DNA from: a virus
Taxonomy: Duplodnaviria; Heunggongvirae; Uroviricota; Caudoviricetes
Reading direction: 5' to 3' (one strand)
IMG/VR virus record: IMGVR_UViG_2541047874_000006
DNA length: 17,810 nucleotides
Below, one piece after another: positions 1-15,575 of this stretch. Both the position numbers and the translations under genes were made by a program. The stretch's first letter is position 1, and each line of letters opens with the position of its first letter. The notes beneath the pieces were generated by a model. The model did no database searches, was not told where the DNA came from, and worked only from the letters and a program-made list of their open reading frames with translations.

Positions 1-348
1 TTACGAATTACTACGGCGCTGTTGCTTTTCCGCATGTACGCGTTTCACTATCTTATAAATCCATTGCAGCGTCAGATTATATTTCTTCGCTAATTCGGCG
101 TAGTTGCGACCATCGCACTCGCTATAGATTTGGTAGTCACGCTCCGACGCCCGTCCGGAGATCCCTTTCGGGAAATAAATGCTTTGCCCACCCCAGTTAC
201 GCATCATTCGGTCGGCAATGGCAAAGCCCACATTTTCCGCCGATGAGCTGTCGAGATTGATGCTCTCAATCAGAACTTGCGATGCATGAAACGCCAGGTC
301 GTTAATGATCTCCGGTGTCCGGGCCATCTCTTTTGATTTTCGTATCAT
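1..348 (-). CDS. Mor/C-family transcriptional activator (phage middle/late gene activator-like)
   Basis: 115-aa ORF; motif block WGGQSIYFPKG...RD..IY...DGRNYAELAKKY..T...IYKIVKR aligns by eye with the conserved core of phage Mu Mor (GGQ.YIP.G...RD..I...F.GRN..EL...Y......YK..RR), recalled from memory. GGAG lies 7 nt upstream of the ATG at 346-348 (minus strand). Confidence 0.75.
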   Translation of the reverse strand: MIRKSKEMARTPEIINDLAFHASQVLIESINLDSSSAENVGFAIADRMMRNWGGQSIYFPKGISGRASERDYQIYSECDGRNYAELAKKYNLTLQWIYKIVKRVHAEKQQRRSNS

Positions 349-560
349 TTTTCATCTCCATATATCTTGCATCCTGTATAAGACCCGATGCGTGTAAAAC
401 CACGGATATACGCTAAGCAGTTGTCATTACTGCTACTCAATACATTCAACAAACAAATAAACAATCACCAAAAATATAAATTTTTAATATTAATGAACGT
501 CATAAATTCACAAAATAAATATATTGTTTGCGTTATGTTTCTTGTCAACTGGAGTATCAT

Positions 561-588
561 TTTACACGATACTGTATGTGCATACAGT
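561..588 (+). promoter_or_regulatory. Possible sigma70 promoter overlapping the LexA box (-35 TTTACA 561-566, -10 TACAGT 583-588, 16-bp spacer)
   Basis: Hexamer matches by eye; the LexA box overlaps the spacer and -10. An alternative leftward promoter (TGTAAAAT on the minus strand at 559-566) is equally plausible, so direction is uncertain. Confidence 0.25.
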
Positions 589-589
589 A
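570..589. promoter_or_regulatory. Candidate LexA (SOS) box TACTGTATGTGCATACAGTA
   Basis: CTGT-N8-ACAG with perfect 8-9 bp palindromic arms (ATACTGTAT / ATACAGTAT); only the central bases differ from the E. coli consensus TACTGTATATATATACAGTA. Sits in the AT-rich divergent intergenic region between the Mor-like gene and the lysis genes. Confidence 0.55.
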
Positions 590-885
590 TTATTTTTACC
601 TGTAGTGTAAAAAGATCGTTTCCCTCACAGTCGCTGACTTTCTTAAACAAACTTTAAAAATCAAATGACTATGGACTATTCCTACGATTCACCGTCCTCT
701 TTTCCCTGCATAATGACGCGCTTATTCTCCAGGACACCTTTTGCTCTTTTATTAATGGGTGGATTTATTAGCAAGCATGTTCATTTATAGAGGATCTATT
801 TTTTAAAGTTATTTATTAAAGCTTTTTTCATTCTTCACTGGAGGGATCTGGCGACACTAAACGCTCACTTATCAGGAGATATCGT

Positions 886-1173
886 ATGAAAAAAGTCACT
901 TTTCCCCGTCTTTCCGGCTGGCTGGTCGCTTCCGTCGCGCTGTTTGTCGCGATCGGCTGGACATCTTCCGCACAGATCCCGGTTGTCATTTATAAACTAA
1001 GTCTGGTTTCGCTCGCCGCTGTGCTGGGATACTGGCTCGATCGCAGTCTGTTTCCCTGGGCGCGGCCTGACTCATTTTGCCCCTGGGAAGAGGCGCGATG
1101 CTGCGCGGCGGCAATGATTCGTCGGGCTATCATCGTTGCAGCCGTCTGCCTTTCCGTCGCGTTAGGACTTTAG
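886..1173 (+). CDS. Small membrane protein with three predicted transmembrane segments, putative holin/pinholin
   Basis: 95 aa with three hydrophobic stretches (GWLVASVALFVAIGW, VVIYKLSLVSLAAVLGYWL, AIIVAAVCLSVALGL); AGGAG 6 nt upstream of the ATG; sits immediately before the endolysin gene. Function inferred from position and topology only. Confidence 0.4.
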   Translation: MKKVTFPRLSGWLVASVALFVAIGWTSSAQIPVVIYKLSLVSLAAVLGYWLDRSLFPWARPDSFCPWEEARCCAAAMIRRAIIVAAVCLSVALGL

Positions 1174-1175
1174 TG

Positions 1176-1781
1176 ATGCAGGTAAAATTTCTCGCGCTAA
1201 TTACTCTGTTCGCGTTCTTCCCGCTTAACGCATCTGAACCGCCGCGAGCATCTCTGGCATGGCGAAACGAACTGATTCGAACTGCACGGGAAGTCTGGGG
1301 ACTGAACGCCCCGGTGGCAGACTTCGCCGGGCAGTTGCACCAGGAATCAGCCTGGCAGCCAATGGCGCGTTCCCCCGTCGGCGCACAGGGTATGGCGCAA
1401 TTTATGCCTGCCACAGCGACATGGATAAGCCAGTTGTATCCACAGCTACGTGAAAACAAGCCCTATAACCCAACCTGGGCGATTCGCGCATTGGTGCAAT
1501 ATGACCAGCATTTGTGGAAAAACATCTCGGCGAAAAATGGCTGCCAGCGTATGGCGTTTACCCTAAGCGCCTATAACGGTGGTCAGGGATGGGTTAATCG
1601 GGATAAAAAACTGGCCGCATCCAAAGGGTTAGATGCCACCATCTGGTTTGGTCATGTTGAGCACGTCAACGCCGGGCGTAGTGCCGCAAACTGGCGAGAA
1701 AATCGTCACTATCCGAAGATGATCCTCTATCAACATGCCGCCCGCTACTTACTCTGGGGGCAGGCAAGCTGTCTTCACTAA
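1176..1781 (+). CDS. Endolysin, lytic transglycosylase (SLT domain) with N-terminal signal or signal-anchor sequence
   Basis: SLT family motifs QESAW (catalytic Glu context), GAQGMAQFMP and AYNGG; hydrophobic N-terminus MQVKFLALITLFAFFPLNA. Start placed at ATG 1176, 2 nt after the upstream gene stop; the longer ORF-track start at 1077 overlaps the previous gene. Confidence 0.8.
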   Translation: MQVKFLALITLFAFFPLNASEPPRASLAWRNELIRTAREVWGLNAPVADFAGQLHQESAWQPMARSPVGAQGMAQFMPATATWISQLYPQLRENKPYNPTWAIRALVQYDQHLWKNISAKNGCQRMAFTLSAYNGGQGWVNRDKKLAASKGLDATIWFGHVEHVNAGRSAANWRENRHYPKMILYQHAARYLLWGQASCLH

Positions 1782-1792
1782 TCAGAGGGCCG

Positions 1793-2107
1793 ATGAAACT
1801 TAGTATCGATTTTTGGGAAGTGATCTCCCTTATGCTTTCCTTCGTTGGATTAATGTTTGCTGCCGGAAAATTGCTGTTAGCGCAAATTGAAAAAAGACTT
1901 AATGAGCGTTTTGAATCTCTGGAAAACGCGCGCCGGGAATCAGAAACAAGCTGGTCGAAACTGGAAAGAGAATTTCTCGAATTTCGTGCCGAGCTTCCGC
2001 TGCATTATGTCCGCAGAGAAGATTATCTTCGTGGCCAGGCAGTATTAGAAGCAAAGCTGGATGCCTTATATAGCAAAATAGAGCTATTACAACGTGGCAG
2101 CTATTAA
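1793..2107 (+). CDS. Membrane-anchored coiled-coil protein, putative i-spanin (Rz-like)
   Basis: 104 aa, N-terminal TM segment (VISLMLSFVGLMFAAGKLLL) followed by a charged heptad-like region; located directly after the endolysin. No embedded o-spanin lipoprotein ORF was found on inspection. Confidence 0.4.
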   Translation: MKLSIDFWEVISLMLSFVGLMFAAGKLLLAQIEKRLNERFESLENARRESETSWSKLEREFLEFRAELPLHYVRREDYLRGQAVLEAKLDALYSKIELLQRGSY

Positions 2108-2111
2108 ATAC

Positions 2112-2145
2112 ATCCCCACCTTTACATAAGTGTGGGGATTTTTTA
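2112..2145 (+). terminator. Intrinsic terminator after the lysis cassette
   Basis: Stem ATCCCCAC (2112-2119) pairs with GTGGGGAT (2132-2139), followed by TTTTTT (2139-2144), immediately after the stop codon at 2105-2107. Confidence 0.6.
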
Positions 2146-2253
2146 TAGCCATTCAATTTTTTCTCTAAATCACATTAAAAGATTCTTCACCTTCACTGCT
2201 TCAGAATACATTTCAACGATAACGAAGTGAGCAGTAATTAAGGAATACCCTAT

Positions 2254-2709
2254 ATGGAAATTTTATCTGTAATTAATTCTGTTGTGACCAGATTACGTGA
2301 ACAGAATCCCGAAATGGACGTATTTATTTCATCGGTTGATGCCAATAAATATATTCCGCAGACGCAGCAAGTTACAGTGATTATTAATTATAGCGGTTCT
2401 CTATTTGCCATGCCTGAAAGCAGTGATGCCCTCGTGCAACAGCAAACGCTCCGTTTAACTGCCACCGTTATTGTTGGCAAAAATTGTGACGCGTTAAACG
2501 CACTGGATCGCATACGCAGCGCATTGGGGGGGATCCAGCTTCCTGATTGCGAGCGTCTTCTTTGGCTTGAAACAGAAATCAATGCAGGCGAGAGCGGTGG
2601 TTTCTGCCGCTACATCCTGGAAATGGCGACCAGCTCGCTGTTTATCGCGAAACGGGAAAGCACGGACCTTACCCTGCTTACTGAAGTTAATTACGAGGAA
2701 ACTGAATGA
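2254..2709 (+). CDS. Phage tail-associated protein (tail completion/terminator-like, Mu gp37 position)
   Basis: 151-aa ORF that opens the tail operon, with AAGGA upstream; stop overlaps the next start (ATGA). Assignment by position relative to the sheath gene. Confidence 0.45.
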   Translation: MEILSVINSVVTRLREQNPEMDVFISSVDANKYIPQTQQVTVIINYSGSLFAMPESSDALVQQQTLRLTATVIVGKNCDALNALDRIRSALGGIQLPDCERLLWLETEINAGESGGFCRYILEMATSSLFIAKRESTDLTLLTEVNYEETE

Positions 2710-2903
2710 AATACATCTACAACGGCCCGGCAAGCGGCGTCACCCTTGCCGACGGACAAGAAATCTTATTGTGGCCGAACAGTGAAATTGATCTGCCAGA
2801 AGAAAACGAGTGGGTTATGACCATGATTGCCCGCAATCACCTGACTCCTGTCATCACTCAGGAAGAACAAAATAACGGAGAGGAAATTGTACATGGCAGC
2901 TAA
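2706..2903 (+). CDS. Small phage protein upstream of the sheath gene (Mu gp38 position)
   Basis: 65-aa ORF translationally coupled to both neighbours; acidic C-terminus. Function not recognisable from sequence alone. Confidence 0.4.
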   Translation: MKYIYNGPASGVTLADGQEILLWPNSEIDLPEENEWVMTMIARNHLTPVITQEEQNNGEEIVHGS

Positions 2904-4317
2904 TTACCTGCACGGTGTAGAAACCATTGAAATTGAAACCGGTCCGCGCCCGGTTAAAGCGGTAAAATCCGCTGTAATCGCTTTAATCGGTAGTGCACCA
3001 TGCGGTCCGGTAAACAAACCAACATTGTGCCTTTCTGAAAGCGATGCCGCGCAGTTTGGCTCGACTCAGGCTAACTTTACTATCCCGCAGGCGCTGAAGG
3101 CGATTTATGACCACGGCGCCGGTACGGTGGTGGTGATTAACGTACTGGATCCGGCAAAACATGGCTCCAGCATCAGCAATGAGAGTATCACTTTTGATTC
3201 CAACAACCAGGCAAAACTGGCTCATCGTGCGGTGCGCAATGTCGTCCTGAAACCCTCTTCAACATCAGCCACTACGTATAGCAGCGCAGCGTTTCATGTT
3301 GATGAACAAACAGGAATAATCACTCGTGCAGAAACTGAGATCCCTGCCGGAGCGAAAGTTTGCGCCTATTACTCATGGGCCGATCCAACAAAAGTTACCG
3401 CAGCCGATATTATTGGCGCCGTTAATACCGCAGGCGATCGCACGGGGATGAAACTGCTACAGGATACCTATAACCTGTATGGTTTCTACGCCAAAATCCT
3501 GCTTGCTCCCGTTTTCTGTACGCAAAAATCGGTCACCACCGAACTGATTGCTCAGGCGGAAAAACTCGGTGCTATCGCCTACATTGACGCCCCAATCGGT
3601 ACTACATTCCAGCAGGTACTGGCTGGTCGCGGCTCGAAAGGCGCAATCAACTTCAACACCAGTTCTGACCGTGCGCGTTTGTGCTATCCGCACGTCAAAG
3701 TTTATGACGGCTCAACCAACCAGGAAGTTCTCGAACCGCTATCTTCACGCGCTGCCGGACTGCGTGCCAAAGTAGACCTGGAGAAAGGTTTCTGGTGGAG
3801 CAACTCAAACCAGGAAATTCAGGGCATTATCGGTATCGAACGTTCACTTTCCGCAATGGTTGATGACCCGCAAAGTGAAGTGAATCAGCTCAACGAAAAC
3901 GGCATTACCACTGTTTTCAATAGTTACGGCTCTGGTCTGCGTTTATGGGGCAACCGCACTGCGGCATGGCCAACCGTGACCCATATGCGTAACTTTGAAA
4001 ACGTTCGCCGCACGGGTGATGTGATTAACGAGTCGATCCGTTATTTCAGCCAGCAGTATATCGATATGCCGATTAATCAGGCACTAATTGATGCCCTGAC
4101 CGAGTCGGTAAATACCTGGGGCCGTAAGCTGATTGCCGACGGCGCACTGCTTGGCTTTGAGTGCTGGTACGATCCGGCGCGAAATTCACCGACCGAACTC
4201 AGTGCCGGGCATTTATTGCTGAGCTATAAATTCACCCCGCCACCGCCGCTGGAACGTCTGACGTTTGAAACTGAAATTACCTCTGAATATTTAGTCTCTC
4301 TGGAGAGCAATAGCTAA
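2893..4317 (+). CDS. Contractile tail sheath protein
   Basis: About 474 aa with the conserved sheath N-terminus (ANYLHGVETIEIETGPRPV...SAVIALIGSAP) and a C-terminal LRLWGNRT-type segment; start taken as ATG 2893 after GGAGAGGA, not the TTG at 2887 used in the ORF track. Confidence 0.9.
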   Translation: MAANYLHGVETIEIETGPRPVKAVKSAVIALIGSAPCGPVNKPTLCLSESDAAQFGSTQANFTIPQALKAIYDHGAGTVVVINVLDPAKHGSSISNESITFDSNNQAKLAHRAVRNVVLKPSSTSATTYSSAAFHVDEQTGIITRAETEIPAGAKVCAYYSWADPTKVTAADIIGAVNTAGDRTGMKLLQDTYNLYGFYAKILLAPVFCTQKSVTTELIAQAEKLGAIAYIDAPIGTTFQQVLAGRGSKGAINFNTSSDRARLCYPHVKVYDGSTNQEVLEPLSSRAAGLRAKVDLEKGFWWSNSNQEIQGIIGIERSLSAMVDDPQSEVNQLNENGITTVFNSYGSGLRLWGNRTAAWPTVTHMRNFENVRRTGDVINESIRYFSQQYIDMPINQALIDALTESVNTWGRKLIADGALLGFECWYDPARNSPTELSAGHLLLSYKFTPPPPLERLTFETEITSEYLVSLESNS

Positions 4318-4841
4318 TGGCTGGAAAAATTCAAATTAACCGTATTACCAATGCCAATATTTATCTCGATGGTAATAACCTTTTAGGTCGTGCAACCGAA
4401 ATTAAATTACCGGATGTCAGTTTAATTATGCAGGAGCATAAAGCACTGGGCATGGTCGGCAAAATCGAACTCCCGGCAGGTTTCGATAAACTGGAAGGGG
4501 AAATTAAATGGAACTCCTTTTATCAAGACGTCATGCGTAAAACGGCAAACCCGTGGCAGGCGGTAGCATTACAGTGCCGCTCCAGTATTGATTGCTATAA
4601 CTCCCAGGGGAAAGCGAATCAATTAGCGTTAGTCACTCATTTGACTGTCATGTTTAAAAAGAATCCATTGGGAACATTTAAACAGAATGAAAACCCGGAA
4701 TTCAGCAGCGCCTTTGGTTGTACCTATATTAAACAGGTGGTCGATGGTGAAACGCTGCTGGAACTGGATTACCTGGCGAATATTTTCCGCGTTAACGGCG
4801 TGGATCAATTAAGTACCTATCGCAATAACATCGGTGGCTAA
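4317..4841 (+). CDS. Tail tube protein
   Basis: 174 aa immediately after the sheath gene with TAATG stop/start overlap; size and position typical of the tube protein of Mu/P2-type contractile tails. Confidence 0.8.
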   Translation: MAGKIQINRITNANIYLDGNNLLGRATEIKLPDVSLIMQEHKALGMVGKIELPAGFDKLEGEIKWNSFYQDVMRKTANPWQAVALQCRSSIDCYNSQGKANQLALVTHLTVMFKKNPLGTFKQNENPEFSSAFGCTYIKQVVDGETLLELDYLANIFRVNGVDQLSTYRNNIGG

Positions 4842-4891
4842 GTTATTCGGGGCTACGGCCCCGATTTCCGCATGACCAATAAGGATACAAA

Positions 4892-5209
4892 ATGAAAGAA
4901 CATTATACCTTACAGTTCCCGTTTACTTCAGCGGCGGGAGACGTAATTAACACTCTGCAATTACGTCGCCTGAAAGTAAAAGATATGCGCAACGCGCGCC
5001 GGATCAGCGAAAAACCAGAAGAATGGGATGAACCGCTAATGGCTGCAATGACCGGACTGGTGCCAGAAGATTTAGCTGAAATGGATTTGCTGGATTACCA
5101 GGCATTGCAGAAACGATTTCAATCCATGCTTAGCGTGGCTACAGAATCCGCCACTGTTATGGCAAGCGATGGCGTTACTGGCGAGATGGTTTCGCTTTCC
5201 GCCCAGTGA
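4892..5209 (+). CDS. Tail assembly chaperone (P2 gpE / Mu gp41 position)
   Basis: 105-aa acidic protein between tube and tape measure; AAGGA 6 nt upstream; an overlapping alternate frame is open to 5297 (see findings). Confidence 0.65.
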   Translation: MKEHYTLQFPFTSAAGDVINTLQLRRLKVKDMRNARRISEKPEEWDEPLMAAMTGLVPEDLAEMDLLDYQALQKRFQSMLSVATESATVMASDGVTGEMVSLSAQ

Positions 5210-5284
5210 GATAGACGCCCTTACCGTCGATGACTTTAGCAACTGGCTGGATGAAGCCAACGCCCAAATAAAAATCGAATATGA

Positions 5285-5307
5285 CTCGCAGACCTGATGT
5301 CTGCGAG
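5285..5307 (+). other. Stable RNA hairpin (perfect 9-bp stem CTCGCAGAC/GTCTGCGAG, 5-nt loop)
   Basis: Perfect inverted repeat read directly from the sequence; overlaps the stop of the alternate-frame extension and is followed by TTT and, further on, a T8 run at 5344-5351. Confidence 0.5.
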
Positions 5308-5398
5308 TTTCCCAAGCCCGTCAGGTTTATTTCTTCCCTGCCCTTTTTTTTAGAAAAATAACCAGCGGGCCATTATCAATATTTAAAGAGAAACAATT

Positions 5399-7759
5399 TT
5401 GGCCAACGATATTATTACCCAGCTTCAGGCGCGTAATGAGACGTTGACGCAGGCAATAGCCCGTTACGGCTCACTCAACGCCAGAACATTGTTAACTCTC
5501 TCTACTCAGCAAGCGACAGTTATCAAACTAACGCAGCGACTTGCCGATTCCGCTCTCCGCCTGGAGGAAAATAGCCGCAGCCGCGCTAATCTGATGGAGA
5601 AAACCCAAACATTTGCCGGGCAATTTAGCAAAGTATTCAATGTTGAAGCCCCCGACTGGAAGTTGCCGTATGAGTTTCAGGACAATATGGTCAATATGGC
5701 GACCAAAGGTGGGATGAGTGATGCCACTCGCGAGACGCTCAGCCTTAATCTGCGCGACTGGAGTATGGATTTTAACCAGCAGCAGACCACGTTACAGTCC
5801 GCCGCTCTGACCTTAGTTGAAGGCAACATATCGTCTTTGCAGGATCTCAACCGCTATATGCCCGAGATCGCCAAAGCCGCCACCGCCACGCGCGACAGCG
5901 CCGAAACATGGGCGAAAGCCGCGCTCGCGACTCATGATCGACTGAATATTGCCCCGGAAAATTTCCACGCTGCGCAAAACATGATGTACAGCGTTACCAA
6001 AAGCGGTGGGCCTGCCATTGCCGAACAAACGCAGTGGATAGAGAAATTTGCAGGTAAAACCGGCGCTCAGGGTCTGGAAGGTATGGCTGAACTGACCGCC
6101 ACCATGCAGATCGCCATGAAAAACGGTGCCAGCGCCAGTGCAGCGGCGGAGAATTTCGACCATTTTCTACAAACCACATTTTCGAAAAAAACCGATAACT
6201 GGTTCGCCAGCCAGGGCGTCGATCTGCAAGGTTCTCTGCTGGAGCATCAGCAAAACGGTATGGGTGTTAGCGAAGCTATGACTCATATCGTGCAAATGCA
6301 GCTTGAGAAGATGAATCCGGCGATCCTCGATACCTTCAAACGCACCATGCAGATTGAAGATTTATCTGCCCGCAGCAATGCGCTGCAATCGATGGTGACG
6401 CAGTTTAATCTGGGCGAAATGTTCGGCGATGCGCAAACGGTGGAATTCCTGGCCCCTATGCTGGCGAACATGGAAGAGTATCGCCAGCTAAAAGCCTCTG
6501 CCATGCAAGCCACCAGCAAGAATCTGATTGATGCCGACTTTTCTGCGCAAATGGCTTCGCCCATTGAACAGACTAAAGCGTTACAACTGGCGTTAAATGA
6601 TTTATGGCTCAGCATTGGCTTGCAGCTTATGCCGGCGATTGGCGAGCTGGCGCAAAGCCTTGCGCCGGTTATTCGCCAGTTCAGCGCCTGGCTACGCGAA
6701 CACCCGGCACTAGTGCAAAACATTGCGAAAATCGTCGGGGCGATTTGGCTGTTTAACGGTGCGCTGAATGTTTTAAAGCTGGGCGCGAACTTCATCGCCT
6801 CGCCGTTTATTCGTCTGGTCGATATCTTCCTGAAAGTCAGGGCAAGTCTGGCGCTCGGAGGCGCAGCGAGTAAGGTGCTATCGGCGGTTAAGTCATTGGG
6901 TGGCGGCGCAAAATGGCTAACGCAACTGCTTGGTCGTGGCCTGAGCGGAGCATTGAAACTGGTTGGTCGGACCGTTCTCTCACTAGGCCGGGTGCTACTG
7001 ATGAATCCCATTGGTCTGGTCATCACTGCGATTGCGGGCGCGGCTTATCTGATTTATCGCAACTGGGAACCTATCACCAGGTTCTTTTCCGCCATCTGGA
7101 AACGTATTACCACGGCCTTTGACGGTGGCATTGCAGGTATTAGCCGGTTGATTCTCGACTGGTCGCCACTGGGGCTGTTCTACAGCGCCTTTTCCGGTGT
7201 GATGAATTGGTTTGGTGTTGAGATGCCTGCGAGTTTTAGCGAGTTCGGCAGCAATATACTGGGTAGCCTGGCCGACGGCATAATGAATGCTTTCCCCGCT
7301 CTGAAAGGCATTATTGATCAGGTCAAAAACGCCATGCCAGACTGGCTAAAAGCCACAATGGGGATCGGCACAGAAGCATCGGCTGCGACTGTTACAGGCA
7401 CGACTAATACCGCATCAGTCTCCCCCGCGACCGTTGTTCCAGGCGTTGCCGGTGCGCTTTTAACGCCGCCTGTGGGCAAACAACTCGCGCCATCCAGCAA
7501 AACGACAACGCCGTCATCGGCGCCAGTGGCAAAACCCGCGTCGGCCTCTTTACCAGGTAAATCCGTAACCAAACCGGCGACGCTACCCCCCCGTTCCCCA
7601 GGAAAAGTCCAGGTGAATTTTTCGCCACAAATTACCGTGCAGGGTAACGGACAAAACACCACTAAAGACATTCAGAACGTGTTGACGATGAGTAAACGCG
7701 AACTGGAAAGAATGATTAACGACGTAATGGCGCAGCAACAGCGCCGGGGGTATGCCTGA
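5399..7759 (+). CDS. Tail tape measure protein
   Basis: 786 aa, coiled-coil N-terminus, hydrophobic central segments, Pro/Ser/Thr-rich C-terminal region; apparent TTG start at 5399 with AAAGAG upstream; located between chaperone and baseplate genes. Confidence 0.85.
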   Translation: MANDIITQLQARNETLTQAIARYGSLNARTLLTLSTQQATVIKLTQRLADSALRLEENSRSRANLMEKTQTFAGQFSKVFNVEAPDWKLPYEFQDNMVNMATKGGMSDATRETLSLNLRDWSMDFNQQQTTLQSAALTLVEGNISSLQDLNRYMPEIAKAATATRDSAETWAKAALATHDRLNIAPENFHAAQNMMYSVTKSGGPAIAEQTQWIEKFAGKTGAQGLEGMAELTATMQIAMKNGASASAAAENFDHFLQTTFSKKTDNWFASQGVDLQGSLLEHQQNGMGVSEAMTHIVQMQLEKMNPAILDTFKRTMQIEDLSARSNALQSMVTQFNLGEMFGDAQTVEFLAPMLANMEEYRQLKASAMQATSKNLIDADFSAQMASPIEQTKALQLALNDLWLSIGLQLMPAIGELAQSLAPVIRQFSAWLREHPALVQNIAKIVGAIWLFNGALNVLKLGANFIASPFIRLVDIFLKVRASLALGGAASKVLSAVKSLGGGAKWLTQLLGRGLSGALKLVGRTVLSLGRVLLMNPIGLVITAIAGAAYLIYRNWEPITRFFSAIWKRITTAFDGGIAGISRLILDWSPLGLFYSAFSGVMNWFGVEMPASFSEFGSNILGSLADGIMNAFPALKGIIDQVKNAMPDWLKATMGIGTEASAATVTGTTNTASVSPATVVPGVAGALLTPPVGKQLAPSSKTTTPSSAPVAKPASASLPGKSVTKPATLPPRSPGKVQVNFSPQITVQGNGQNTTKDIQNVLTMSKRELERMINDVMAQQQRRGYA

Positions 7760-8712
7760 TGTATGCCGTTTTAGGAGAGATTGAATTTAAGGTTGTCACA
7801 TTCTGGGACGGCTTTAAAAGCACAATGGGCGTGGATTACGCCACACATGCCCGTATTGAAGGCAAACCTGGCGTGCAGTTTATTGGCGATAAGCTGGACA
7901 TGCTGGCGCTGGAATTTTCCCTGCACAGCCAGTTTTGCCAACCCACAACAGAGCTGAATCGACTGCGTGAAGCCATGCTTGCCCACAAAGCAATGGCGCT
8001 GGTGTTTGGCAACGGTGATTATCGCGGCTGGTTTGTAATTACAGAGTTAACCGCCACTCACCAGCACACCGATCCCTGGGGCAATGTCATTGCCCAAAGC
8101 GGAACAATGTCGCTCCAGGAGTATACCGGCGATCCGAAAAACCCACTCCTGCCCCCGGCGATTACCACCCAGGAGCCTAATATTGACGAAAAGGCGAGCG
8201 ATTTTCCGGACAAGGTGGAGTCCTGGTTGGATCAGATATTGAACGCCATTGAAGAAGGTATGCGCAAAGCCAAAGAGATGCTCGATGAACTGGCGCAATC
8301 CATTGAAGATATTAAAAAAACAGTGGCAAAGGTTAAAGCACTGATTAAAGAGGCCAAAGCGTTAAAAGAAAAGTGTGAAAAGATAATTACGTCGTTGAAA
8401 AAGACTATCGATGCCATCGAAACCCTGTTTAAACAGCCGATGGATCTGCAAACGCTGGCAGGATTACCAAAAGCGTTGTCGGCGCAGATTAAAGCATTGC
8501 TGGGTAGCCTGCCGGGTATCCGCGACTGCGCCAAAGACGCCGGGACACTGGTTGACCATGCACAAGAACTGTTTGGCAGCATCACCAGCGCCATCGCCGA
8601 AGCAACTTTCGATAAAGCCACAACGTTGGTTGAGCAGGCGCGTACAACGGTACAGCAAACCACTCCCGCAGTGACTCAGCTCGCTGCCGCGACCATTACG
8701 AGGAGCTGGTAA
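7759..8712 (+). CDS. DNA circularization protein N-like tail protein (Mu gpN family)
   Basis: 317 aa; position after the tape measure with ATGA overlap; coiled-coil C-terminal half. Confidence 0.7.
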   Translation: MYAVLGEIEFKVVTFWDGFKSTMGVDYATHARIEGKPGVQFIGDKLDMLALEFSLHSQFCQPTTELNRLREAMLAHKAMALVFGNGDYRGWFVITELTATHQHTDPWGNVIAQSGTMSLQEYTGDPKNPLLPPAITTQEPNIDEKASDFPDKVESWLDQILNAIEEGMRKAKEMLDELAQSIEDIKKTVAKVKALIKEAKALKEKCEKIITSLKKTIDAIETLFKQPMDLQTLAGLPKALSAQIKALLGSLPGIRDCAKDAGTLVDHAQELFGSITSAIAEATFDKATTLVEQARTTVQQTTPAVTQLAAATITRSW

Positions 8713-8921
8713 TGCGATACCTTGAACATATCACCACCGACGGCGAACGCTGGGATAACCTGGCATGGCATTACTACGGTGATGCACTGGCTTATGAACG
8801 CATTATCGCCGCCAATCCACATGTCGCCATTTATCCGGTACTGCCTGCCGGTATTCAGCTCATTATTCCGGTCATTACCGTCAACAAGACCGTATCGGAG
8901 ATCCCACCATGGCTGAGATAA
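8712..8921 (+). CDS. Tail protein X-like (LysM-like small tail protein)
   Basis: 69 aa; pattern D.L....YYGD.....ERIIAANP......LPAG..L.IP resembles the P2 gpX family as recalled; TAATG overlap with the upstream gene. Confidence 0.65.
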   Translation: MRYLEHITTDGERWDNLAWHYYGDALAYERIIAANPHVAIYPVLPAGIQLIIPVITVNKTVSEIPPWLR

Positions 8922-9949
8922 GCGTAACTGGCGGCGTCTTTGCCACGCTCGCGCCCATTTTTACCCTCTGGTATGGGCATAAAGATATCACTTATGACAT
9001 CACGCCTTATGTCACCAGCATCAGTTACCAGGACAGTATTAAAAACGAGTCGGATACCATCGCGATTACACTGGATGACACCGATGGACGCTGGATAAAA
9101 GAGTGGTATCCCGGCAAAGGCGATACGCTGGCGCTGCACATAGGTTATCAGGGGGAAAAACTGCTCGATTGTGGTCAATATATCATTGATAAAATTGACA
9201 TTTCAGCACCACCTTCCACGGTAAATATTGATGGCATCGCCACTTCCGTCAATCAGGCGCTGCGCACCCGTAACAGTCAGGGCTTTGAAGAGACAACGCT
9301 TTCAGCCATCGCCAGCCGTATCGCGCAAACTCACGGCCTGACGCTGGTGGGCAAAATCGAGCCGCTGACGATTGACCGGGTGACACAGTACGGCGAAACC
9401 GATGTCGGATTTCTCAAGCGCCTGGCCAGCGAATATGGCTATGCGGTAAAGGTGACCACCAAAGAACTGATTTTTTCGCATTTACCCACGCTGCGCTGCC
9501 TGGCGCCGGTGAAAAAGATCGACCGCAAAGACGTTTCGCATTTCACCTTCAAAGATACCATTAACCGCATCTACAAAAACGCCACCGTACAGCATCAAAA
9601 TAGTAAGAAAAAAGAACTGGTTATCTACACTCACGACAGCCAGAAAAAGCCGTCTGCCCGTGGAGTCGGCACCAGTGCCGACACGCTGAAACTGAACAGT
9701 CGGGCGCCGGACGTTGGCGCGGCGCAGGCAAAGGCCAACGCCGCGCTCGACAGCCACAACGAATATCAACAAACCGGAACGCTCAGGATGATGGGCTGCC
9801 CGGAACTGACGGCAGGCAATAAAATCGAGCTAACCGATTTTGGTGTACTTTCCGGTCAGTGGCTGATTGATAAATCGACTCACAGTTTTGTGCGCAGCGG
9901 CTATATCACTGAAATCGACATTTCACGCGGGCCAGCAACCAGCCAGTAA
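8909..9949 (+). CDS. Baseplate hub protein (P2 gpD / Mu gpP-like)
   Basis: 346 aa at the position of Mu P / P2 D; overlaps the upstream gene by 13 nt. Confidence 0.75.
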   Translation: MAEISVTGGVFATLAPIFTLWYGHKDITYDITPYVTSISYQDSIKNESDTIAITLDDTDGRWIKEWYPGKGDTLALHIGYQGEKLLDCGQYIIDKIDISAPPSTVNIDGIATSVNQALRTRNSQGFEETTLSAIASRIAQTHGLTLVGKIEPLTIDRVTQYGETDVGFLKRLASEYGYAVKVTTKELIFSHLPTLRCLAPVKKIDRKDVSHFTFKDTINRIYKNATVQHQNSKKKELVIYTHDSQKKPSARGVGTSADTLKLNSRAPDVGAAQAKANAALDSHNEYQQTGTLRMMGCPELTAGNKIELTDFGVLSGQWLIDKSTHSFVRSGYITEIDISRGPATSQ

Positions 9950-9958
9950 GGAGGCAAT

Positions 9959-10660
9959 ATGAAAGGAGTAACCCGGCAAACGGGGATTATCAGCGATATT
10001 GACGAAACCAGCGTTCGGGTGCGGGTCACGCTACCAGAGTGTGACAATCTGAAGAGTAACTGGCTTGCGGTGCTGCAGCGCAATTCTCAGGACAATAAGG
10101 ATTACTGGCTACCGGATATGGGCGAACAGGTGGAAGTTCTGCTGGATGATAACGGTGAAGATGGCGTGGTGCTGGGCGCAGTATATTCAACGGTAGACAC
10201 TGCGCCAGTAGCATCGCGCGACAAACGCTATGTCCAGTTTTCTGATGGCGCAGCGTTTGAATATGACCGCAGCACCCACCAGCTTACGATTAATGGTGGC
10301 ATCGAAAAAATCGTGATTGAGGTTATTGACCGTACCAGCCTGACATCGCCCAACGTTGAGGTTAAAGCCCAACACGTCACCGTGACTTCCGACACTGTTG
10401 ATGTGAAAGCCACCGATGTCAGCATTGAAGCCAGTAAGGTCGATGTTAAAGCGGCAGCAGTGACGGTAGATGCGCCCATGAGCACCTTTACCGGCAACGT
10501 CACGGTGATGAAAAAACTCACCTGGCTTGGTGGCATGGCAGGAAGTGGAGGCATCGGCAACGCCGCCACGATAACCGGCAATGTCAACGTGATTGGTAAC
10601 GTTCAGGCCAGCGGCACATTGCAGGACAGCGGTGGCAACTCCAACCACCATTCACACTGA
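9959..10660 (+). CDS. Baseplate spike/assembly protein V-like (Mu gp45 family)
   Basis: 233 aa; N-terminal region with the GEQVEVLLDDNGEDGVVLGAVY motif typical of gpV-type spikes, then repeated V.VKA..V.V strands suggesting a beta-helix. Confidence 0.75.
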   Translation: MKGVTRQTGIISDIDETSVRVRVTLPECDNLKSNWLAVLQRNSQDNKDYWLPDMGEQVEVLLDDNGEDGVVLGAVYSTVDTAPVASRDKRYVQFSDGAAFEYDRSTHQLTINGGIEKIVIEVIDRTSLTSPNVEVKAQHVTVTSDTVDVKATDVSIEASKVDVKAAAVTVDAPMSTFTGNVTVMKKLTWLGGMAGSGGIGNAATITGNVNVIGNVQASGTLQDSGGNSNHHSH

Positions 10661-10665
10661 CGTTT

Positions 10666-10695
10666 AACCCGCCTGATGGCGGGTTTTCTCTTTTT
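10666..10695 (+). terminator. Intrinsic terminator-like hairpin inside the baseplate gene block
   Basis: AACCCGCC (10666-10673), loop TGAT, GGCGGGTT (10678-10685), then TTCTCTTTTT; lies in the 98-bp gap between the spike gene and the wedge gene. Confidence 0.5.
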
Positions 10696-10758
10696 AATCA
10701 ATCAGTTTTCTAAATCGCTTTAATATCCCCGCCGCCTGTTCAGGGCGAAAATACCCTC

Positions 10759-11118
10759 ATGAACACGAAAACACGCCCCTCTACGCTGCACTGGCAACCC
10801 GCCTTGCAGCGGCCTGAAGAATACGTCTGCGGACTGGATGATATTCACCAGGCAATACACATCATTCTGCGCACACCGCGCGGCAGTGATCCCCACAGAC
10901 CGCTGTTTGGCAGCAACTTGTGGCACTACATCGATTATCCCATCGAGCGGGCGATCCCGCATGTGGTAAGGGAGTCGGTAGAGGCCATCCGCCAGTGGGA
11001 ACCGCGCTGCCGGTTGCTGAAGGTGACACCGGTAATCGACGGGGAACATCTGACGTTACGTGTGCAATGGCGCGCCGCTGACGGCGTAATCAACTCAACG
11101 GAGGTGTTATGGCGATAG
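10759..11118 (+). CDS. Baseplate wedge protein, GPW/gp25 family
   Basis: 119 aa with the conserved segment GLDDIHQAIHIILRTPRGSDPHRPLFGSNLWHYID typical of P2 gpW / T4 gp25-like proteins. Confidence 0.8.
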   Translation: MNTKTRPSTLHWQPALQRPEEYVCGLDDIHQAIHIILRTPRGSDPHRPLFGSNLWHYIDYPIERAIPHVVRESVEAIRQWEPRCRLLKVTPVIDGEHLTLRVQWRAADGVINSTEVLWR

Positions 11119-12224
11119 CCGAACCCGATTTTATTGACCGCGATCCTGCGCAAATTACCAGCGAGATGATTGCGCAGTACGAAGATGCCAGCGGCAAAAA
11201 GCTCTACCCGGCACAGGCCGAGCGGTTGCTGATTGACCTTTTTGCCTATCGTGAAAACCTTGTACGCATCGCCATTCAGGAAGTGGCGAAACAGAATCTG
11301 GTCGCGTATTCCCGCGCGCCAATGCTGGATTATTTAGGTGAGCTGGTGGGCGTTCACCGCTTACCTGCACAACCGGCAAAAACCACGTTGCAGTTTTCGG
11401 TAGCCAGTAAGAATCGAAATAACATTCTAATTCCACAAGGAACACGTGCCAGCGCCTCTGACAGCGTGATGTTTGCTACCGATGAAGATGTTCTGATTCC
11501 GGCGGGAAGTTTGCATATAGCCGTTCCCGCCACCAGTCTGGCAACAGGCGAAGCGGGCAATGGCTGGCAGCCTGCACAGATTAGCGCCCTTGTTGACAGG
11601 ATTGGTTATTACGATATCAGCGTGACCAACCTGACGGCCTCAACCGGCGGCTGCGGTGAAGAGAGCGATGACGCACTACGCCAGCGGATCCAACTGGCGC
11701 CGGAAAGTTTCAGCAATGCGGGCAGCTATGGTGCCTACCGCTTTCATACGCTTTCCGTAAGCCAGTCGATTATTGACGTCGCGGTACTGGGGCCGGACGA
11801 AGGATTGCCAGAAGGCTGCGTGGAGATCTACCCGCTAACGCTGAATGGTCTGCCGGGCGTGGAACTGCTCGCGCAAATTGAACTGGAGGTTAGCAAGGAG
11901 AAAAAACGTCCGCTGACCGACAAAGTAAGTGCGAAATGCGCCGTTAGGGTGCCGTATGAAATCCGTGCGCAGCTCACACTGTTTACCACTGCCGATCAGG
12001 AGACAACGCTGGCTGCGGCGCGTAAAGCGATTAGCCTCTGGACGCAACAGCGGCAGAAACATCTGGGACAGGACATTGTGCCAAACCAGATAATCAAAGT
12101 GTTACAAGTCGATGGTGTCTATGACGTTGCGCTGAATATACCTACAAAACGTATTTTGCAGGCGCATGAGTGGGCGGAATGCACCGCGATAGACGTCACG
12201 ATTGCCGGAGTCAGCGATGGATAA
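11109..12224 (+). CDS. Baseplate J-like protein (Mu gp47 / P2 gpJ family)
   Basis: 371 aa; GGAGG upstream; position and size match baseplate J; overlaps both neighbours. Confidence 0.8.
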   Translation: MAIAEPDFIDRDPAQITSEMIAQYEDASGKKLYPAQAERLLIDLFAYRENLVRIAIQEVAKQNLVAYSRAPMLDYLGELVGVHRLPAQPAKTTLQFSVASKNRNNILIPQGTRASASDSVMFATDEDVLIPAGSLHIAVPATSLATGEAGNGWQPAQISALVDRIGYYDISVTNLTASTGGCGEESDDALRQRIQLAPESFSNAGSYGAYRFHTLSVSQSIIDVAVLGPDEGLPEGCVEIYPLTLNGLPGVELLAQIELEVSKEKKRPLTDKVSAKCAVRVPYEIRAQLTLFTTADQETTLAAARKAISLWTQQRQKHLGQDIVPNQIIKVLQVDGVYDVALNIPTKRILQAHEWAECTAIDVTIAGVSDG

Positions 12225-12582
12225 ATTGCTGCCGCCACCGCCGCTTGCCAGCGATGAGCGTTTTTCAACTCTGGCAAATATCGCTGCCGAGCGTTTTGCC
12301 CAACTCGATCTGACAGCGTTGATGGTTTATCTGGTAGACCTGGTTGATGCTTCGGCATTACCTGCCCTTGCAGAACAATTTCACGTTCAGGGGCTGGAAG
12401 GTTGGTTATTTACCACTGATGAACGGGAGAAGCGCGATTTAATTAAGCAAGCCATTGAGCTGCATAAATATAAAGGAACGATTTGGGCGGTACGGCGGGT
12501 GCTGGAAATACTTTCGCTACCAGGAACTATTTCAGAATGGTTTGAATATGGGGGGAAGGCTTATTTTTTAAGGTTGATATAG
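12202..12582 (+). pseudogene. Tail protein I-like (Mu gp48 / P2 gpI family), N-terminal part; frame discontinuity at a G6 run
   Basis: Probable start ATG 12217 (MDKLLPPPPLA, GGAG upstream). The frame ends at 12582 while the -1 frame is open from 12546 and continues as the next ORF. Possible frameshifted gene or two genes. Confidence 0.5.
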
Positions 12583-12587
12583 AGCTG

Positions 12588-12848
12588 GTGGATAAAGGCA
12601 TGGATGAAAACCTTTTCAATAATCTGGTAGAACTCATTCATGAATATAAAAACACACGTTCAAAACTGGAAGCATTAATTGTCTGGATCATTAACCAAAG
12701 TGCTATTCCTGTTATTGGCTGTGCACTTTATGGTGGTGAACTGACGACGGTTTTACCTTTCCAGATACGGGAAGTACAGCAAAACACATCAATCTATTAC
12801 GGAACAGGGCAATGGAGCCTTGAAATTACATCTATTTACCCGGAGTAA
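12588..12848 (+). CDS. Hypothetical protein, or C-terminal portion of the tail protein I-like gene
   Basis: 86-aa ORF in the -1 frame relative to the preceding gene; lower GC by eye; stop lies inside the RBS-ATG spacer of the tail fiber gene. Confidence 0.4.
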   Translation: MDKGMDENLFNNLVELIHEYKNTRSKLEALIVWIINQSAIPVIGCALYGGELTTVLPFQIREVQQNTSIYYGTGQWSLEITSIYPE

Positions 12849-12850
12849 TT

Positions 12851-14620
12851 ATGGATAATGAGTTTTATACTCTACTCACCGACAGAGGGATGGCAAAAAT
12901 TGCCAATGCTCTGGCGGATAAAAAACAGCTTCATCTACAAAAAATGGCTGTTGGCGACAGCGGAGGGCAATATTATGAACCCACCGTCCGCCAAACTAAA
13001 TTACGTCATGAAGTATGGCGTGGTGATTTAAATACATTAACAGTTGCGCCCAATAATCCTAACTGGTTAATTGCGGAACTTGTACTGCCCGAAAATATCG
13101 GCGGCTGGTATGTACGTGAAGTCGGCGTTTTTGATACTGACGGTGAACTCATTGCTATCGGTAAATTCCCGGAGTCGTATAAACCGCTATTACCCGGCGG
13201 CAGCGGTAAGCAAGTTTGCATTCGTCTCATTATGGAAGTTTCCAATACGACAGCGGTAACACTCACCGTTGACCCCAGTATTGTGCTGGCAACACGGGAT
13301 TATGTTGATTCGCAACTGGATGAACATGAACGTTCGACTAATCACCCTGATGCTACGTTATCGCAAAAAGGCTTTACGCAGTTAAGTAACGCCACTGACA
13401 GTGATGACGAAACCAAAGCGGCTACGCCAAAAGCGGTGAAAGCGGCGATGATTGAGGCACGAAATCATCGTCATACCTGGAGTCAGATTACTGATATTCC
13501 GGATAGTACGCTGACGCAAAAAGGGATTGTGAAGCTTAGTAACGCGATTGATAGCACCAGCACGACAGAGGCGGCAACACCGAGCGCGGTGAAGGCGGCG
13601 TATGACCTGGCGAATAGTAAGGCTGCGGGAAACCATACTCACCCATGGGGACAGATTACGGGTGTTCCAGACGGCACCCTGTCGCAAAAAGGGATTGTGA
13701 AGCTTAATAATGCGACGGATAGCAACAGTACGACGGAGGCGGCTACGCCGAGTGCGGTGAAAGCGGCGTATGACCTGGCAAATGGAAAGGCTGCAGGTAG
13801 TCATACGCACCCCTGGGGGCAGATTACGGGTATTCCGGATGGCACCCTGACGCAAAAAGGGATTGTGAAGCTTAGTAATGCGACGGATAGCAACAGTACG
13901 ACGGAGGCGGCTACGCCAAGTGCGGTGAAGGCGGCGTATGATAAAGCCTGTGAGGCATATAGCAGGATTAACAATTCCTCATTCCGCTTCTATACATCAA
14001 ATGGAACATTTACCGTGCCGACTGGAGTAACAGAAATACTTCTGGAAATGTCAGGCGGTGGTGGGGGCGGTGGTGGTGGGGCAATCGCCGGAGGCTCGAC
14101 AGTGGTACAACCTAAATTTGGACTAGGCGGCGGAGCAGGAAAACCTGGTGAAATTATAATTACTCCTCTCACAGTTAAACCCGGAGATATGTACTCCTTT
14201 ACAGTTGGGGCTGGAGGGGCTGGAGGGGCTGGAGGCACACAGGTAAGACCAGAGAGTGGTTCGACTTGGATTCCCAGAGATGAATTAGGACAAGCAGGTA
14301 TTCCTGGAGCGGCATCATATTTTTCCTCACTTACTGCTTCCGGTGGTGCTGGTGGGGAAGGAGGGAAAATAATAATTATCGACTCCCCGTACGCCAACTC
14401 AGTAGGAGAGGTTCCCAAAACATACTCCAGCAACGGTGAAACTGCAGTAAATACTCCTTATGGAAAAGGGGGATTGGGAGGAGCGAATAGTGATGGCCAA
14501 TCCGGCTCTGGTTATGGTGCGGGAGGTGGGGGAGGGGCTGGTTTAGGATCAACTTCGATAAACCACGCTGCCCGCAATGGCGGTCGTGGCTTGGGTGGTT
14601 ATATAAAAATTTTATGGTGA
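12851..14620 (+). CDS. Tail fiber protein with internal tandem repeats and a glycine-rich C-terminal domain
   Basis: 589 aa; N-terminus (MAVGDSGG...EVWRGDL...LIAELVLPENIGGWYVREVGVFD...FPESYKP) matches the conserved N-terminal domain of Mu S / P2 H / E. coli Stf fibers; four repeats of TL(S/T)QKGIVKLSNATDS..TTEAATPSAVKAAYD; C-terminal 190 aa rich in Gly runs. Confidence 0.85.
   Translation: MDNEFYTLLTDRGMAKIANALADKKQLHLQKMAVGDSGGQYYEPTVRQTKLRHEVWRGDLNTLTVAPNNPNWLIAELVLPENIGGWYVREVGVFDTDGELIAIGKFPESYKPLLPGGSGKQVCIRLIMEVSNTTAVTLTVDPSIVLATRDYVDSQLDEHERSTNHPDATLSQKGFTQLSNATDSDDETKAATPKAVKAAMIEARNHRHTWSQITDIPDSTLTQKGIVKLSNAIDSTSTTEAATPSAVKAAYDLANSKAAGNHTHPWGQITGVPDGTLSQKGIVKLNNATDSNSTTEAATPSAVKAAYDLANGKAAGSHTHPWGQITGIPDGTLTQKGIVKLSNATDSNSTTEAATPSAVKAAYDKACEAYSRINNSSFRFYTSNGTFTVPTGVTEILLEMSGGGGGGGGGAIAGGSTVVQPKFGLGGGAGKPGEIIITPLTVKPGDMYSFTVGAGGAGGAGGTQVRPESGSTWIPRDELGQAGIPGAASYFSSLTASGGAGGEGGKIIIIDSPYANSVGEVPKTYSSNGETAVNTPYGKGGLGGANSDGQSGSGYGAGGGGGAGLGSTSINHAARNGGRGLGGYIKILW
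13340..13960 (+). repeat. Four tandem coding repeats (153-168 bp period) inside the tail fiber gene
   Basis: CGCAAAAAG occurs at 13362, 13515, 13683 and 13851; copies 3 and 4 are nearly identical at the nucleotide level. Confidence 0.7.
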
Positions 14621-14624
14621 ACAG

Positions 14625-15230
14625 ATGACACGATATGCGTATTACCATCCGGTAACCTTTGAGGTTATTGACTGGATAGATGCAGCCTCTTTTACTGTGG
14701 AATTACCTGATTCAGTAATTCCTGTAGATGATGAGCAGTGGCAGTTAAAAGATAAACCATGCTGGATATGTCTTGACCCATTCAAAATTATCACCACACC
14801 ACCGCCGGGTGATTTTTACATCTTAGAGAATGATAAATGGGTATATGACAAAACATTATTTACCATTGCACTTGAGAATACCAAGGCACAGGTTACACAG
14901 GAAATAAAAAATCGACGTGATGAAATAACGGTAGATTACATCATCATCAACAACCATCACTTCCACAGTGATACAAATAGCCGTATCCAACAGCTCTCGC
15001 TCACTAAAATGGGAGCGGAGAAAAAAATCCTTCCAGGTTTAATGTGGAAAACTAAAAATAACGGTCTGATTGAGTTAACCAACGAAATCGCTTCCCAGTT
15101 TGAATCGGTAACAATGGATCACGATATGCGCCTGTTCGCCAACGCCCAGCGCCATATCGCGGCGGTGGAAGCTCTGGACGATATTCAGGCGGTGCTCGAC
15201 TACGACTACTCCACAGGCTGGCAACCATGA
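14625..15230 (+). CDS. Tail fiber assembly protein (Tfa; Mu gpU / P2 gpG family)
   Basis: 201 aa immediately after the tail fiber gene; AT-rich; conserved C-terminal region typical of Tfa chaperones. Confidence 0.75.
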   Translation: MTRYAYYHPVTFEVIDWIDAASFTVELPDSVIPVDDEQWQLKDKPCWICLDPFKIITTPPPGDFYILENDKWVYDKTLFTIALENTKAQVTQEIKNRRDEITVDYIIINNHHFHSDTNSRIQQLSLTKMGAEKKILPGLMWKTKNNGLIELTNEIASQFESVTMDHDMRLFANAQRHIAAVEALDDIQAVLDYDYSTGWQP

Positions 15231-15553
15231 GTAAAACCACTGTCTGGCTCGCTTGTTATAAGGGCCGAACAGAGCACCGTGGTATTGCCCGACTGGCTGA
15301 CTGGCTTACCCGTAAAATCACACGCGGTAGTTATTCCCACTGTGAATTAGCCGTTAAGCATGGTGAAAATAGTTACCTTTGTTACTCTGCATCACTGCGC
15401 GATCGCGGTGTACGCGAAAAGATAATGCCATTGCCAGCGGATAAGTGGGATATGCTGCCGCTCCAGGCCAGCCTTCAGGATGTGGAAACTTTTTTCCGTA
15501 AACATGATGGCAAAAAATATGACTGGCGCGGAGCATTAGGAGAGCCTGTTTAA
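15227..15553 (+). pseudogene. Gene truncated by IS insertion (5' portion; last three codons and stop supplied by the IS end)
   Basis: ATGA overlap with tfa; the ORF runs into the IS terminal repeat, which contributes residues EPV and the stop. The original reading frame resumes after the IS at 16865. Confidence 0.6.
15534..15541. repeat. Target-site duplication CATTAGGA (left copy)
   Basis: Identical 8-mer directly flanks both IS ends (15534-15541 and 16857-16864). Confidence 0.65.
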
Positions 15554-15575
15554 GATTCTGTGTAAATGCCTTTTC

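Follow-up and report, generated by a model that had tools for sequence, protein, structure and literature searches.

A conserved UUU_C tetranucleotide as the candidate site of a probable programmed +1 frameshift in the gene for the tail assembly chaperone in a P2-family tail cluster

The tail assembly chaperone gene in the window, by which we mean the whole 17,810-nt stretch of viral DNA that was analysed, likely uses a programmed +1 frameshift on the sequence CGA_UUU_CAA (5114-5122) to make an E+E' chaperone in addition to its short product. The initial annotation had proposed a Mu-type (-2/+1) programmed shift close to the end of this gene. The target frame (+1, equivalent to -2) stands, and a programmed shift is still the best explanation of the locus. 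The Mu mechanism does not fit, as the window has no G run and allows no -2 re-pairing. The elements of the locus are listed below, with F denoting the first base of the Phe76 codon.

4317..4841, + strand: tail tube gene (PF04985, E = 4.8e-56)
4892..5209, + strand: gpE-like tail assembly chaperone ORF, frame 0 (PF10109 Phage_TAC_7, E = 6.8e-19, residues 5-80)
4892..5119, + strand: N-terminal part common to both predicted products, Met1-Phe76, TAC_7 domain (frame-0 pN/pS 0.39 vs 0.94 in the +1 frame)
5073..5075, + strand: TAG closing the +1 frame upstream (read in the sequence)
5114..5122, + strand: proposed shift site CGA_UUU_CAA (TTTC in 195/195 loci; stop-codon bounds F-8 to F+24)
5120..5209, + strand: frame-0 tail of the short product, 29 codons and stop (frame-0 pN/pS 0.9-2.0)
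5121..5297, + strand: putative E' segment, +1 frame, 58 codons, NPCLAWLQNPPLLWQAMALLARWFRFPPSEIDALTVDDFSNWLDEANAQIKIEYDSQT, then TGA 5295-5297 (+1-frame pN/pS, PF06528, BLASTP to P2 E')
5399..7759, + strand: tape measure gene (PF10145)

The chaperone gene sits between the tube gene and the tape measure gene, the latter labelled 'phage tail tape measure protein' by RefSeq in E. coli A37. In frame 0 the ORF runs from the ATG at 4892 to the TGA at 5207-5209 and encodes 105 amino acids, which match TAC_7 with 68.1 bits (gathering score 25). The +1 frame opens at 5076, directly after the TAG at 5073-5075, and runs to the TGA at 5295-5297. It overlaps frame 0 by 44 codons and extends a further 29 codons once frame 0 has stopped; the peptide read from these 29 codons is the one quoted in the initial annotation. 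All of the frame coordinates given there hold, including the TAG at 5212-5214 that closes the -1 frame and excludes a canonical -1 shift. Among 222 open +1-frame stretches within the genes of the window, the mean length is 18 codons and only two reach at least 73 codons. The length of the open frame is thus unusual, and by itself not decisive. A comparison with related loci, 195 of which keep the +1-frame peptide, and the pN/pS values described below raise the open frame above what chance would be expected to produce.

The related loci were taken from phage records, from a set of one genome per species and from IMG/VR; a scan of genome contigs gave five close loci. The E' peptide was found in the +1 frame of the chaperone gene in 195 loci with 121 distinct sequences, so the alternate frame that the initial annotation had expected homologs to conserve is indeed open in them. 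By their N-terminal domains, these loci fall into 12 lineages less than 70% identical to each other, or eight lineages at less than 50%, and they belong to phages or prophages of enterobacteria (Salmonella also), Burkholderia, Pseudomonas and Ralstonia. The +1-frame peptide of the window matches PF06528 (Phage_P2_GpE) with 19.4-20.6 bits (E = 3e-4), below the gathering score of 23, and 11 of 15 aligned E' peptides of the family match the same model (E <= 0.01). A BLASTP comparison with P2 E' gave E = 6e-4, with MALLARWFRFPPSEIDALTVDDFSNWLDEA aligned to MADVAVIFHWPPSELYPMSLTELITWREKA. In the predicted fusion of 134 residues, Pfam places TAC_7 at 5-78 and GpE at 93-127. These comparisons support the view that the +1 frame codes for a genuine and conserved extension of the tail chaperone, and by homology this extension appears to be the counterpart of P2 E'. 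Searches of NCBIfam and of PDB sequences gave no match. No protein with the Phe-Asn junction was present in the protein database searched, where all named entries are the 105-residue 'phage tail assembly protein'. The E' peptide matches three small PHROGs of 'unknown function' (phrog_8286, phrog_10636 and phrog_28973), suggesting that annotation pipelines call the frameshift segment as an orphan ORF.

Rare versions of the gene carry E and E' in a single ORF (loci L197 and L063, proteins P0001 and P0002). Each of them stems from a different 1-nt homopolymer deletion that lies 7-25 codons past the TTT, such as in C runs within Pro-Pro codons, and the version in L197 keeps TTT_C. They may reflect sequencing errors, or mutants in which the long form is the sole product.

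To locate the change of frame, pN/pS was calculated from Nei-Gojobori counts for both frames in 95 ungapped distinct sequences.

180 nt before Phe76: pN/pS 0.39 in frame 0, 0.94 in the +1 frame
F+3 to F+36: 0.90 in frame 0, 0.55 in the +1 frame
F+36 to F+72: 1.69 in frame 0, 0.37 in the +1 frame
F+72 to F+108: 1.96 in frame 0, 0.19 in the +1 frame

Along the E' segment, the +1-frame values are 0.55, 0.37, 0.19 and 0.29. With a sliding window of five codons, the crossover of selection falls at codons 0 to +2 from Phe76 (TTT, 5117-5119), at a resolution that does not distinguish Phe76 from sites up to about 4 codons downstream. The enterobacterial nucleotide alignment agrees: past ~5133, substitutions are silent in the +1 frame and replacements in frame 0, and one +1-frame Leu codon varies among TTA, CTG, CTA and CTC. 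Stop codons bound the site from both sides. In ten loci (L011, L012, L115-119, L184, L198, L199), the +1 frame opens just 8 nt before the TTT. In the other direction, the frame-0 stop lies as early as F+24 (L111) or F+27 (L043/44, L181 and L195/6), and many homologs stop frame 0 within 8-10 codons past the Phe codon. As the frame-0 stop wanders between F+24 and F+108 among the homologs, the frame-0 tail of the short product is apparently unconstrained. Taken together, the selection crossover and the stop-codon bounds place the shift about 30 codons upstream of the frame-0 stop, giving a predicted +1-frame part of 58 residues (5121-5294). The extension of about 29 residues from a shift near the stop, as originally suggested, is half as long as the segment that selection delimits. 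The +1 frame contains no ATG, GTG or TTG from 5076 to the ATG at 5169. Since the stretch 5076-5169 is under +1-frame selection and has no start codon, it would be reachable only from frame 0.

Within the stop-codon bounds, TTT followed by C is the sole universal feature (195 of 195 loci). The Phe76 column is TTT in all of 120 distinct sequences and is the only one of 15 conserved columns of the N-terminal domain with a single codon. Each of the other 14 uses two or more codons, and in the four conserved Asp columns the minor codon accounts for 28-46%. Seven lineages from loci with 58-66% GC keep TTT, although it makes up only 11-25% of the Phe codons there. The codon after TTT varies (CAA, CAG, CGC, CGT, CGG, CGA, CTG or CTT, for Gln, Arg or Leu), and its first base is always C. 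The rare CGA, at 5114-5116 in the window, precedes TTT in 98 of the 121 distinct sequences and is nearly invariant in the enterobacterial and Ralstonia lineages; a second conserved Arg column has CGA in only 1 of 120. This CGA may act from the E site on +1 slippage. Synonymous change is depressed over AAA CGA TTT CA. The flanks of TTT_C differ by lineage, with UCC/GCC_UUU_CGC, GUG_UUU_CGG and GCA_UUU_CAA in other lineages. The frame-0 A-site codons are not notably rare, and the first +1-frame codon is the rare AGG in some relatives.

No RNA structure downstream of the site was conserved between it and the WFRF motif in an alifold analysis of 18 diverse sequences. A candidate hairpin at 5123-5137 is paired in only 68% of cells, and the single-sequence fold has an unremarkable minimum free energy (z = -0.66). 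Upstream of the site there is no Shine-Dalgarno-like sequence, Rfam gave no match, and no homopolymer longer than 3 nt occurs in 5076-5209. The tetranucleotide itself has precedents. UUU_C is the +1 P-site slippery sequence of influenza PA-X, where tRNA-Phe prefers UUC over UUU, and a UUU_C class of sites has been predicted (PMC3498833). In a cell-free system from E. coli, TTT_C likewise ranks with the efficient +1 tetramers (bioRxiv 10.1101/2025.10.02.679949).

From the frames, the homology, the switch of the selected frame at Phe76 and the invariant UUU_C, all of them seen in the sequences, we infer the ribosomal slip, its efficiency and the roles of the two proteins as follows. The gene at 4892-5209 would correspond to P2 gene E, which encodes the tail assembly chaperone and lies ahead of the tape measure gene. 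The majority of ribosomes would stay in frame 0 and make the 105-residue protein, consisting of the TAC_7 domain and the unconstrained tail. In a minority, with the Phe76 codon UUU (5117-5119) in the P site, tRNA-Phe (anticodon GAA) would re-pair on UUC (5118-5120), and the ribosome would next read AAU (5121-5123) and go on in the +1 frame to the TGA at 5295-5297. A -2 move is implausible here because the codon two bases back is GAU. The predicted long product, E+E', has 134 residues, 76 shared with the short form and 58 from E'. A +1 slip at UUU_C would give the junction peptide ...QALQKRF-NPCLAWLQNPPLLWQAMALLAR..., that is ...LQKRF-NPCLAW.... If the pairs lambda G/GT and P2 E/E+E' are a guide, the tape measure protein would be a binding partner of both forms, and the E' end would serve to bring in tube subunits while the tail is assembled. 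The long form is needed in small amounts in lambda and Mu (PMC5009743; PMC3498833), and the Mu frameshift occurs at about 2% in vivo (PMC3498833). A low level of unstimulated slippage would fit such small amounts of the long form.

Several other explanations were weighed against a +1 slip at UUU_C. The closest in position is a +1 slip four codons further on, at CUU_AGC (5129-5134), where tRNA-Leu would move from CUU to UUA as in Ty1, or at another site in codons +1 to +8. CUU_A belongs to the classical +1 motifs, both the stop-codon bounds and the resolution of the selection crossover allow for this site, and the slip codon of P2 aligns there by Pfam coordinates. The Ty1-like site was rejected for its lack of conservation: relatives have CTT ACC, CTT AAC, CTT GGG, CTC GGT, ACG GGG, ACT GGG, ATC GGA, GTT GAG, GTG GGT and others at this position, and there is no alternative slippery motif common to the lineages. 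We regard a slip in this stretch as unlikely. A little less likely again is that E' is a separate small protein of 42 residues, translated from its own start at the ATG at 5169 in the +1 frame. That ATG is present, P2 and several lineages retain Met at this position, and it is where the Pfam GpE model begins; the PHROGs and BcepMu gp42 are annotated as stand-alone ORFs, and gene callers treat the segment likewise. Against this, many lineages have no Met at the position (QAQGLLARW, AGEKLLARW, RASGLLARW), selection on the +1 frame acts already over 5121-5168, a stretch that offers no start codon, and the invariance of TTT_C would be left unexplained. Moreover, E+E' figures in the P2 record as a fusion made by frameshifting and as a tail protein that is essential.

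A Mu-type -2 shift, or any shift near the frame-0 stop that adds only about 29 residues, now appears very improbable. Such a shift would also lead into the +1/-2 frame, like that of Mu. PhiKM-type relatives carry a G5 run (GCC GGG GGA GAT TGA) close to the stop, and a 1-nt deletion at this run fuses the frames in L063. However, the window has no G run in 5076-5209 and no longer homopolymer of any kind there than 3 nt, and the +1 frame is under purifying selection from about 30 codons upstream of the stop, as the interchange of the Leu codons TTA, CTG, CTA and CTC illustrates. The conserved LLARWFRFPPSE core of E' also precedes the frame-0 stop. The G5 run itself was rejected as the slip site in the PhiKM-type genes, since at least 20 loci (for example GTT TAG ATT; L043/44, L067/69) stop frame 0 upstream of its position. 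It is just as improbable that the two frames are a relic, in which one ancestral ORF was disrupted by an indel, leaving a pseudogene, or is split by an error of sequencing. The window does have a 1-nt deletion in gene I, and in-frame versions exist in L197, P0001 and P0002. Yet these versions are single cases, each with a different 1-nt homopolymer deletion, whereas the two-frame layout is found in 195 loci of 12 lineages, including the cultured, plaque-forming phages BcepMu, phiE255 and PhiKM, and both parts are under purifying selection. Finally, RNA polymerase rather than the ribosome might change the frame, as is known for some recoded genes (PMC5009743). Transcriptional slippage needs a long homopolymer, but the longest run in the overlap is 3 nt and the conserved element is T3, and we consider this explanation extremely unlikely.

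A +1 slip at UUU_C would make the window gene a homolog of P2 E/E+E' that is recoded in a different way. Both systems have the Pfam domain TAC_7 followed by GpE, the latter below the gathering score in the window, and both lie between the tube and tape measure genes. The P2 E+E' protein has 142 residues, with TAC_7 at 7-85 and GpE at 104-139, compared with 134 residues, 5-78 and 93-127 for the window fusion; E' has 57 residues in P2 and 58 in the window, with 33% identity over 30 residues. The annotated slip site of P2, T_TTT_TTG (NC_001895), aligns three codons after Phe76 by Pfam coordinates. The two slips thus appear to occur at the same domain boundary, the C-terminal end of TAC_7, and not demonstrably at the same codon. 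P2 uses a -1 shift on an X_XXY_YYZ heptamer, and its frame-0 tail after the site has six codons. In contrast, the window has the UUU_C site for a +1 shift and a frame-0 tail of 29 codons. Since its -1 frame is closed and it has no heptamer, its mode of recoding probably differs from that of P2. All of 80 P2-type loci have GGTTTTTTG, a weak control as they are all near-identical copies of P2. In Pasteurella phage AFS-2018a (L014), E' lies in the -1 frame, with a canonical A_AAG_GGA heptamer two codons before the stop and TTA in place of TTT at the Phe position. This layout indicates that the direction of the shift has switched within the family.

Mu gp41 undergoes a -2 frameshift on CGG_GGG_CGA according to the passages of two articles that cite Xu et al. 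2004 for it (PMC5009743; PMC3498833), and we read this site in the Mu sequence (L004). Its extension is also in the +1/-2 frame and its gene has the same genomic position; a Trp-Leu/Val motif follows just past the junction in both (GGEWLR in Mu, LAWLQ in the window). In Mu, the G5 run lies 38 nt before the stop and -2 re-pairing is possible, whereas the window gene lacks both a G run and any -2 pairing. The shared slip site that an alignment with Mu gp41 was meant to reveal is therefore not there: the Mu G run has no counterpart in the window. In addition, the Mu extension has no Pfam GpE match, and the other tail genes of Mu are not P2-like. The resemblance of the whole cluster to Mu, on which the earlier reading leaned, comes down to the Mor activator; the tail genes are P2-family by Pfam and the nearest phages are BcepMu-type.

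Influenza A PA-X (UCC_UUU_CGU, PMC3498833) shares with the window the UUU_C, the P-site tRNA-Phe (proposed for the window), the lack of an obvious RNA structure and, perhaps, conserved neighbouring codons. BcepMu-type relatives have UCC_UUU_CGC, which is nearly the PA-X site. Unlike the window gene, PA-X is an unrelated gene translated by a eukaryotic ribosome, and the enterobacterial flanks are CGA and CAR. The true homologs are BcepMu gp41/gp42 and the corresponding genes of phiE255, PhiKM and KP12, with chaperone identities of 42-49%, an identical two-frame layout and TTT_C. These relatives are complete phages of 35-40 kb, whereas the window holds a headless tail cluster.

In the RefSeq record of BcepMu (NC_005882; L002, 24602-25363), gp42 is called 'G-pre-tape measure frameshift protein' and gp43 its slippage-made C-terminus; the record sets 'ribosomal slippage' between gp42 and gp43 instead of at the gp41/gp42 junction. 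Homology identifies gp42 as the E' segment, which lies in the +1 frame of gp41 (UCC_UUU_CGC), and the slippage has probably been annotated in the wrong place.

Depending on the phage, tail chaperone genes shift by -1, -2 or +1 (PMC5009743), and many +1 cases have been annotated in actinobacteriophages (PMC10274946). Frameshifting in tail chaperones, +1 included, is thus already known. In the literature we found no description of the UUU_C signal of this BcepMu-type and enterobacterial lineage; an earlier mention is possible, for example in Xu et al. 2004.

Frameshifting in tail chaperone genes is a textbook case of a conserved recoding event. For phages of Gram-negative bacteria, to our knowledge, the forward (+1) variety has been poorly characterised. 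The UUU_C site would be a compact, widely conserved candidate signal that is directly testable in E. coli. We put forward more tentatively, as a possibility we do not yet favour, that a P2-family clade comprising the BcepMu-type phages and the enterobacterial headless clusters swapped the -1 heptamer for a minimal, structure-independent +1 signal, which in enterobacteria would be CGA_UUU_C with the rare, I:A-decoded CGA in the E site as a stimulator. If so, the UUU_C class that influenza PA-X led to predict would gain a natural representative in bacteria, and homologous genes would arrive at one product ratio through slips of opposite direction at a shared domain boundary. Annotation is affected as well: RefSeq models only the 105-residue protein, the PHROGs list E' as of unknown function, and in BcepMu slippage has been placed elsewhere. 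A correct E+E' gene model would matter for the engineering of tailocins and phages built on this P2-family tail module.

By Pfam, the tail genes of the window are P2-family (FI, FII, E, T, U, X, D, V, W, J and I), and the module thus appears to encode a P2-family contractile tail. The genes around the chaperone locus are as follows.

1-348, - strand: Mor activator
886-1173: holin
1077-1781: SLT transglycosylase
2254-2709: Gp37
2887-4317: sheath gene (Pfam)
further tail genes: gpU, X, D, V, W (gp25), J and I (Pfam)
12851-14620: tail fibre
14625-15230: fibre-assembly gene
15576-16784, - strand: IS256/Mutator-family transposase
17019-17810, - strand: RlaP gene

The divergent Mor activator and the lysis genes lie upstream of the tail module, and no head genes are found among the genes of the window (1-17810). 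The closest phage relatives of the chaperone are BcepMu-type (PhiKM, KP12, BcepMu and phiE255), together with prophage-like Salmonella loci. IMG/VR contigs of the window's cluster type are 13-18 kb long, compared with 35-40 kb for the whole PhiKM and BcepMu relatives. The window looks like a tailocin-type element. In E. coli A37 (L010) the cluster adjoins lysC. Of 5426 complete E. coli genomes, 195 carry the locus, with identities of 90-97.5%, and there the RefSeq gene model is only the 105-residue 'phage tail assembly protein'.

Tail gene I is split in the window into 12202-12582 (126 residues, PF09684) and a -1-frame continuation at 12588-12848. E. coli A10 has a single 210-residue 'phage tail protein I' CDS at this place, with T7 where the window has T6 (12564-12569), pointing to a 1-nt deletion or a homopolymer read error as the cause of the break. 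Because of at least this one disabling indel, the window copy of the cluster may not be fully functional. The remaining T_TTT_TTA in gene I is a canonical -1 heptamer, and slippage there would restore the full-length protein.

A 10-bp hairpin, CTCGCAGAC-CTGAT-GTCTGCGAG, surrounds the E' stop codon at ~5289-5315. It is not a canonical terminator, as no T run follows it. Six enterobacterial homologs retain the hairpin, in which one pair is compensated.
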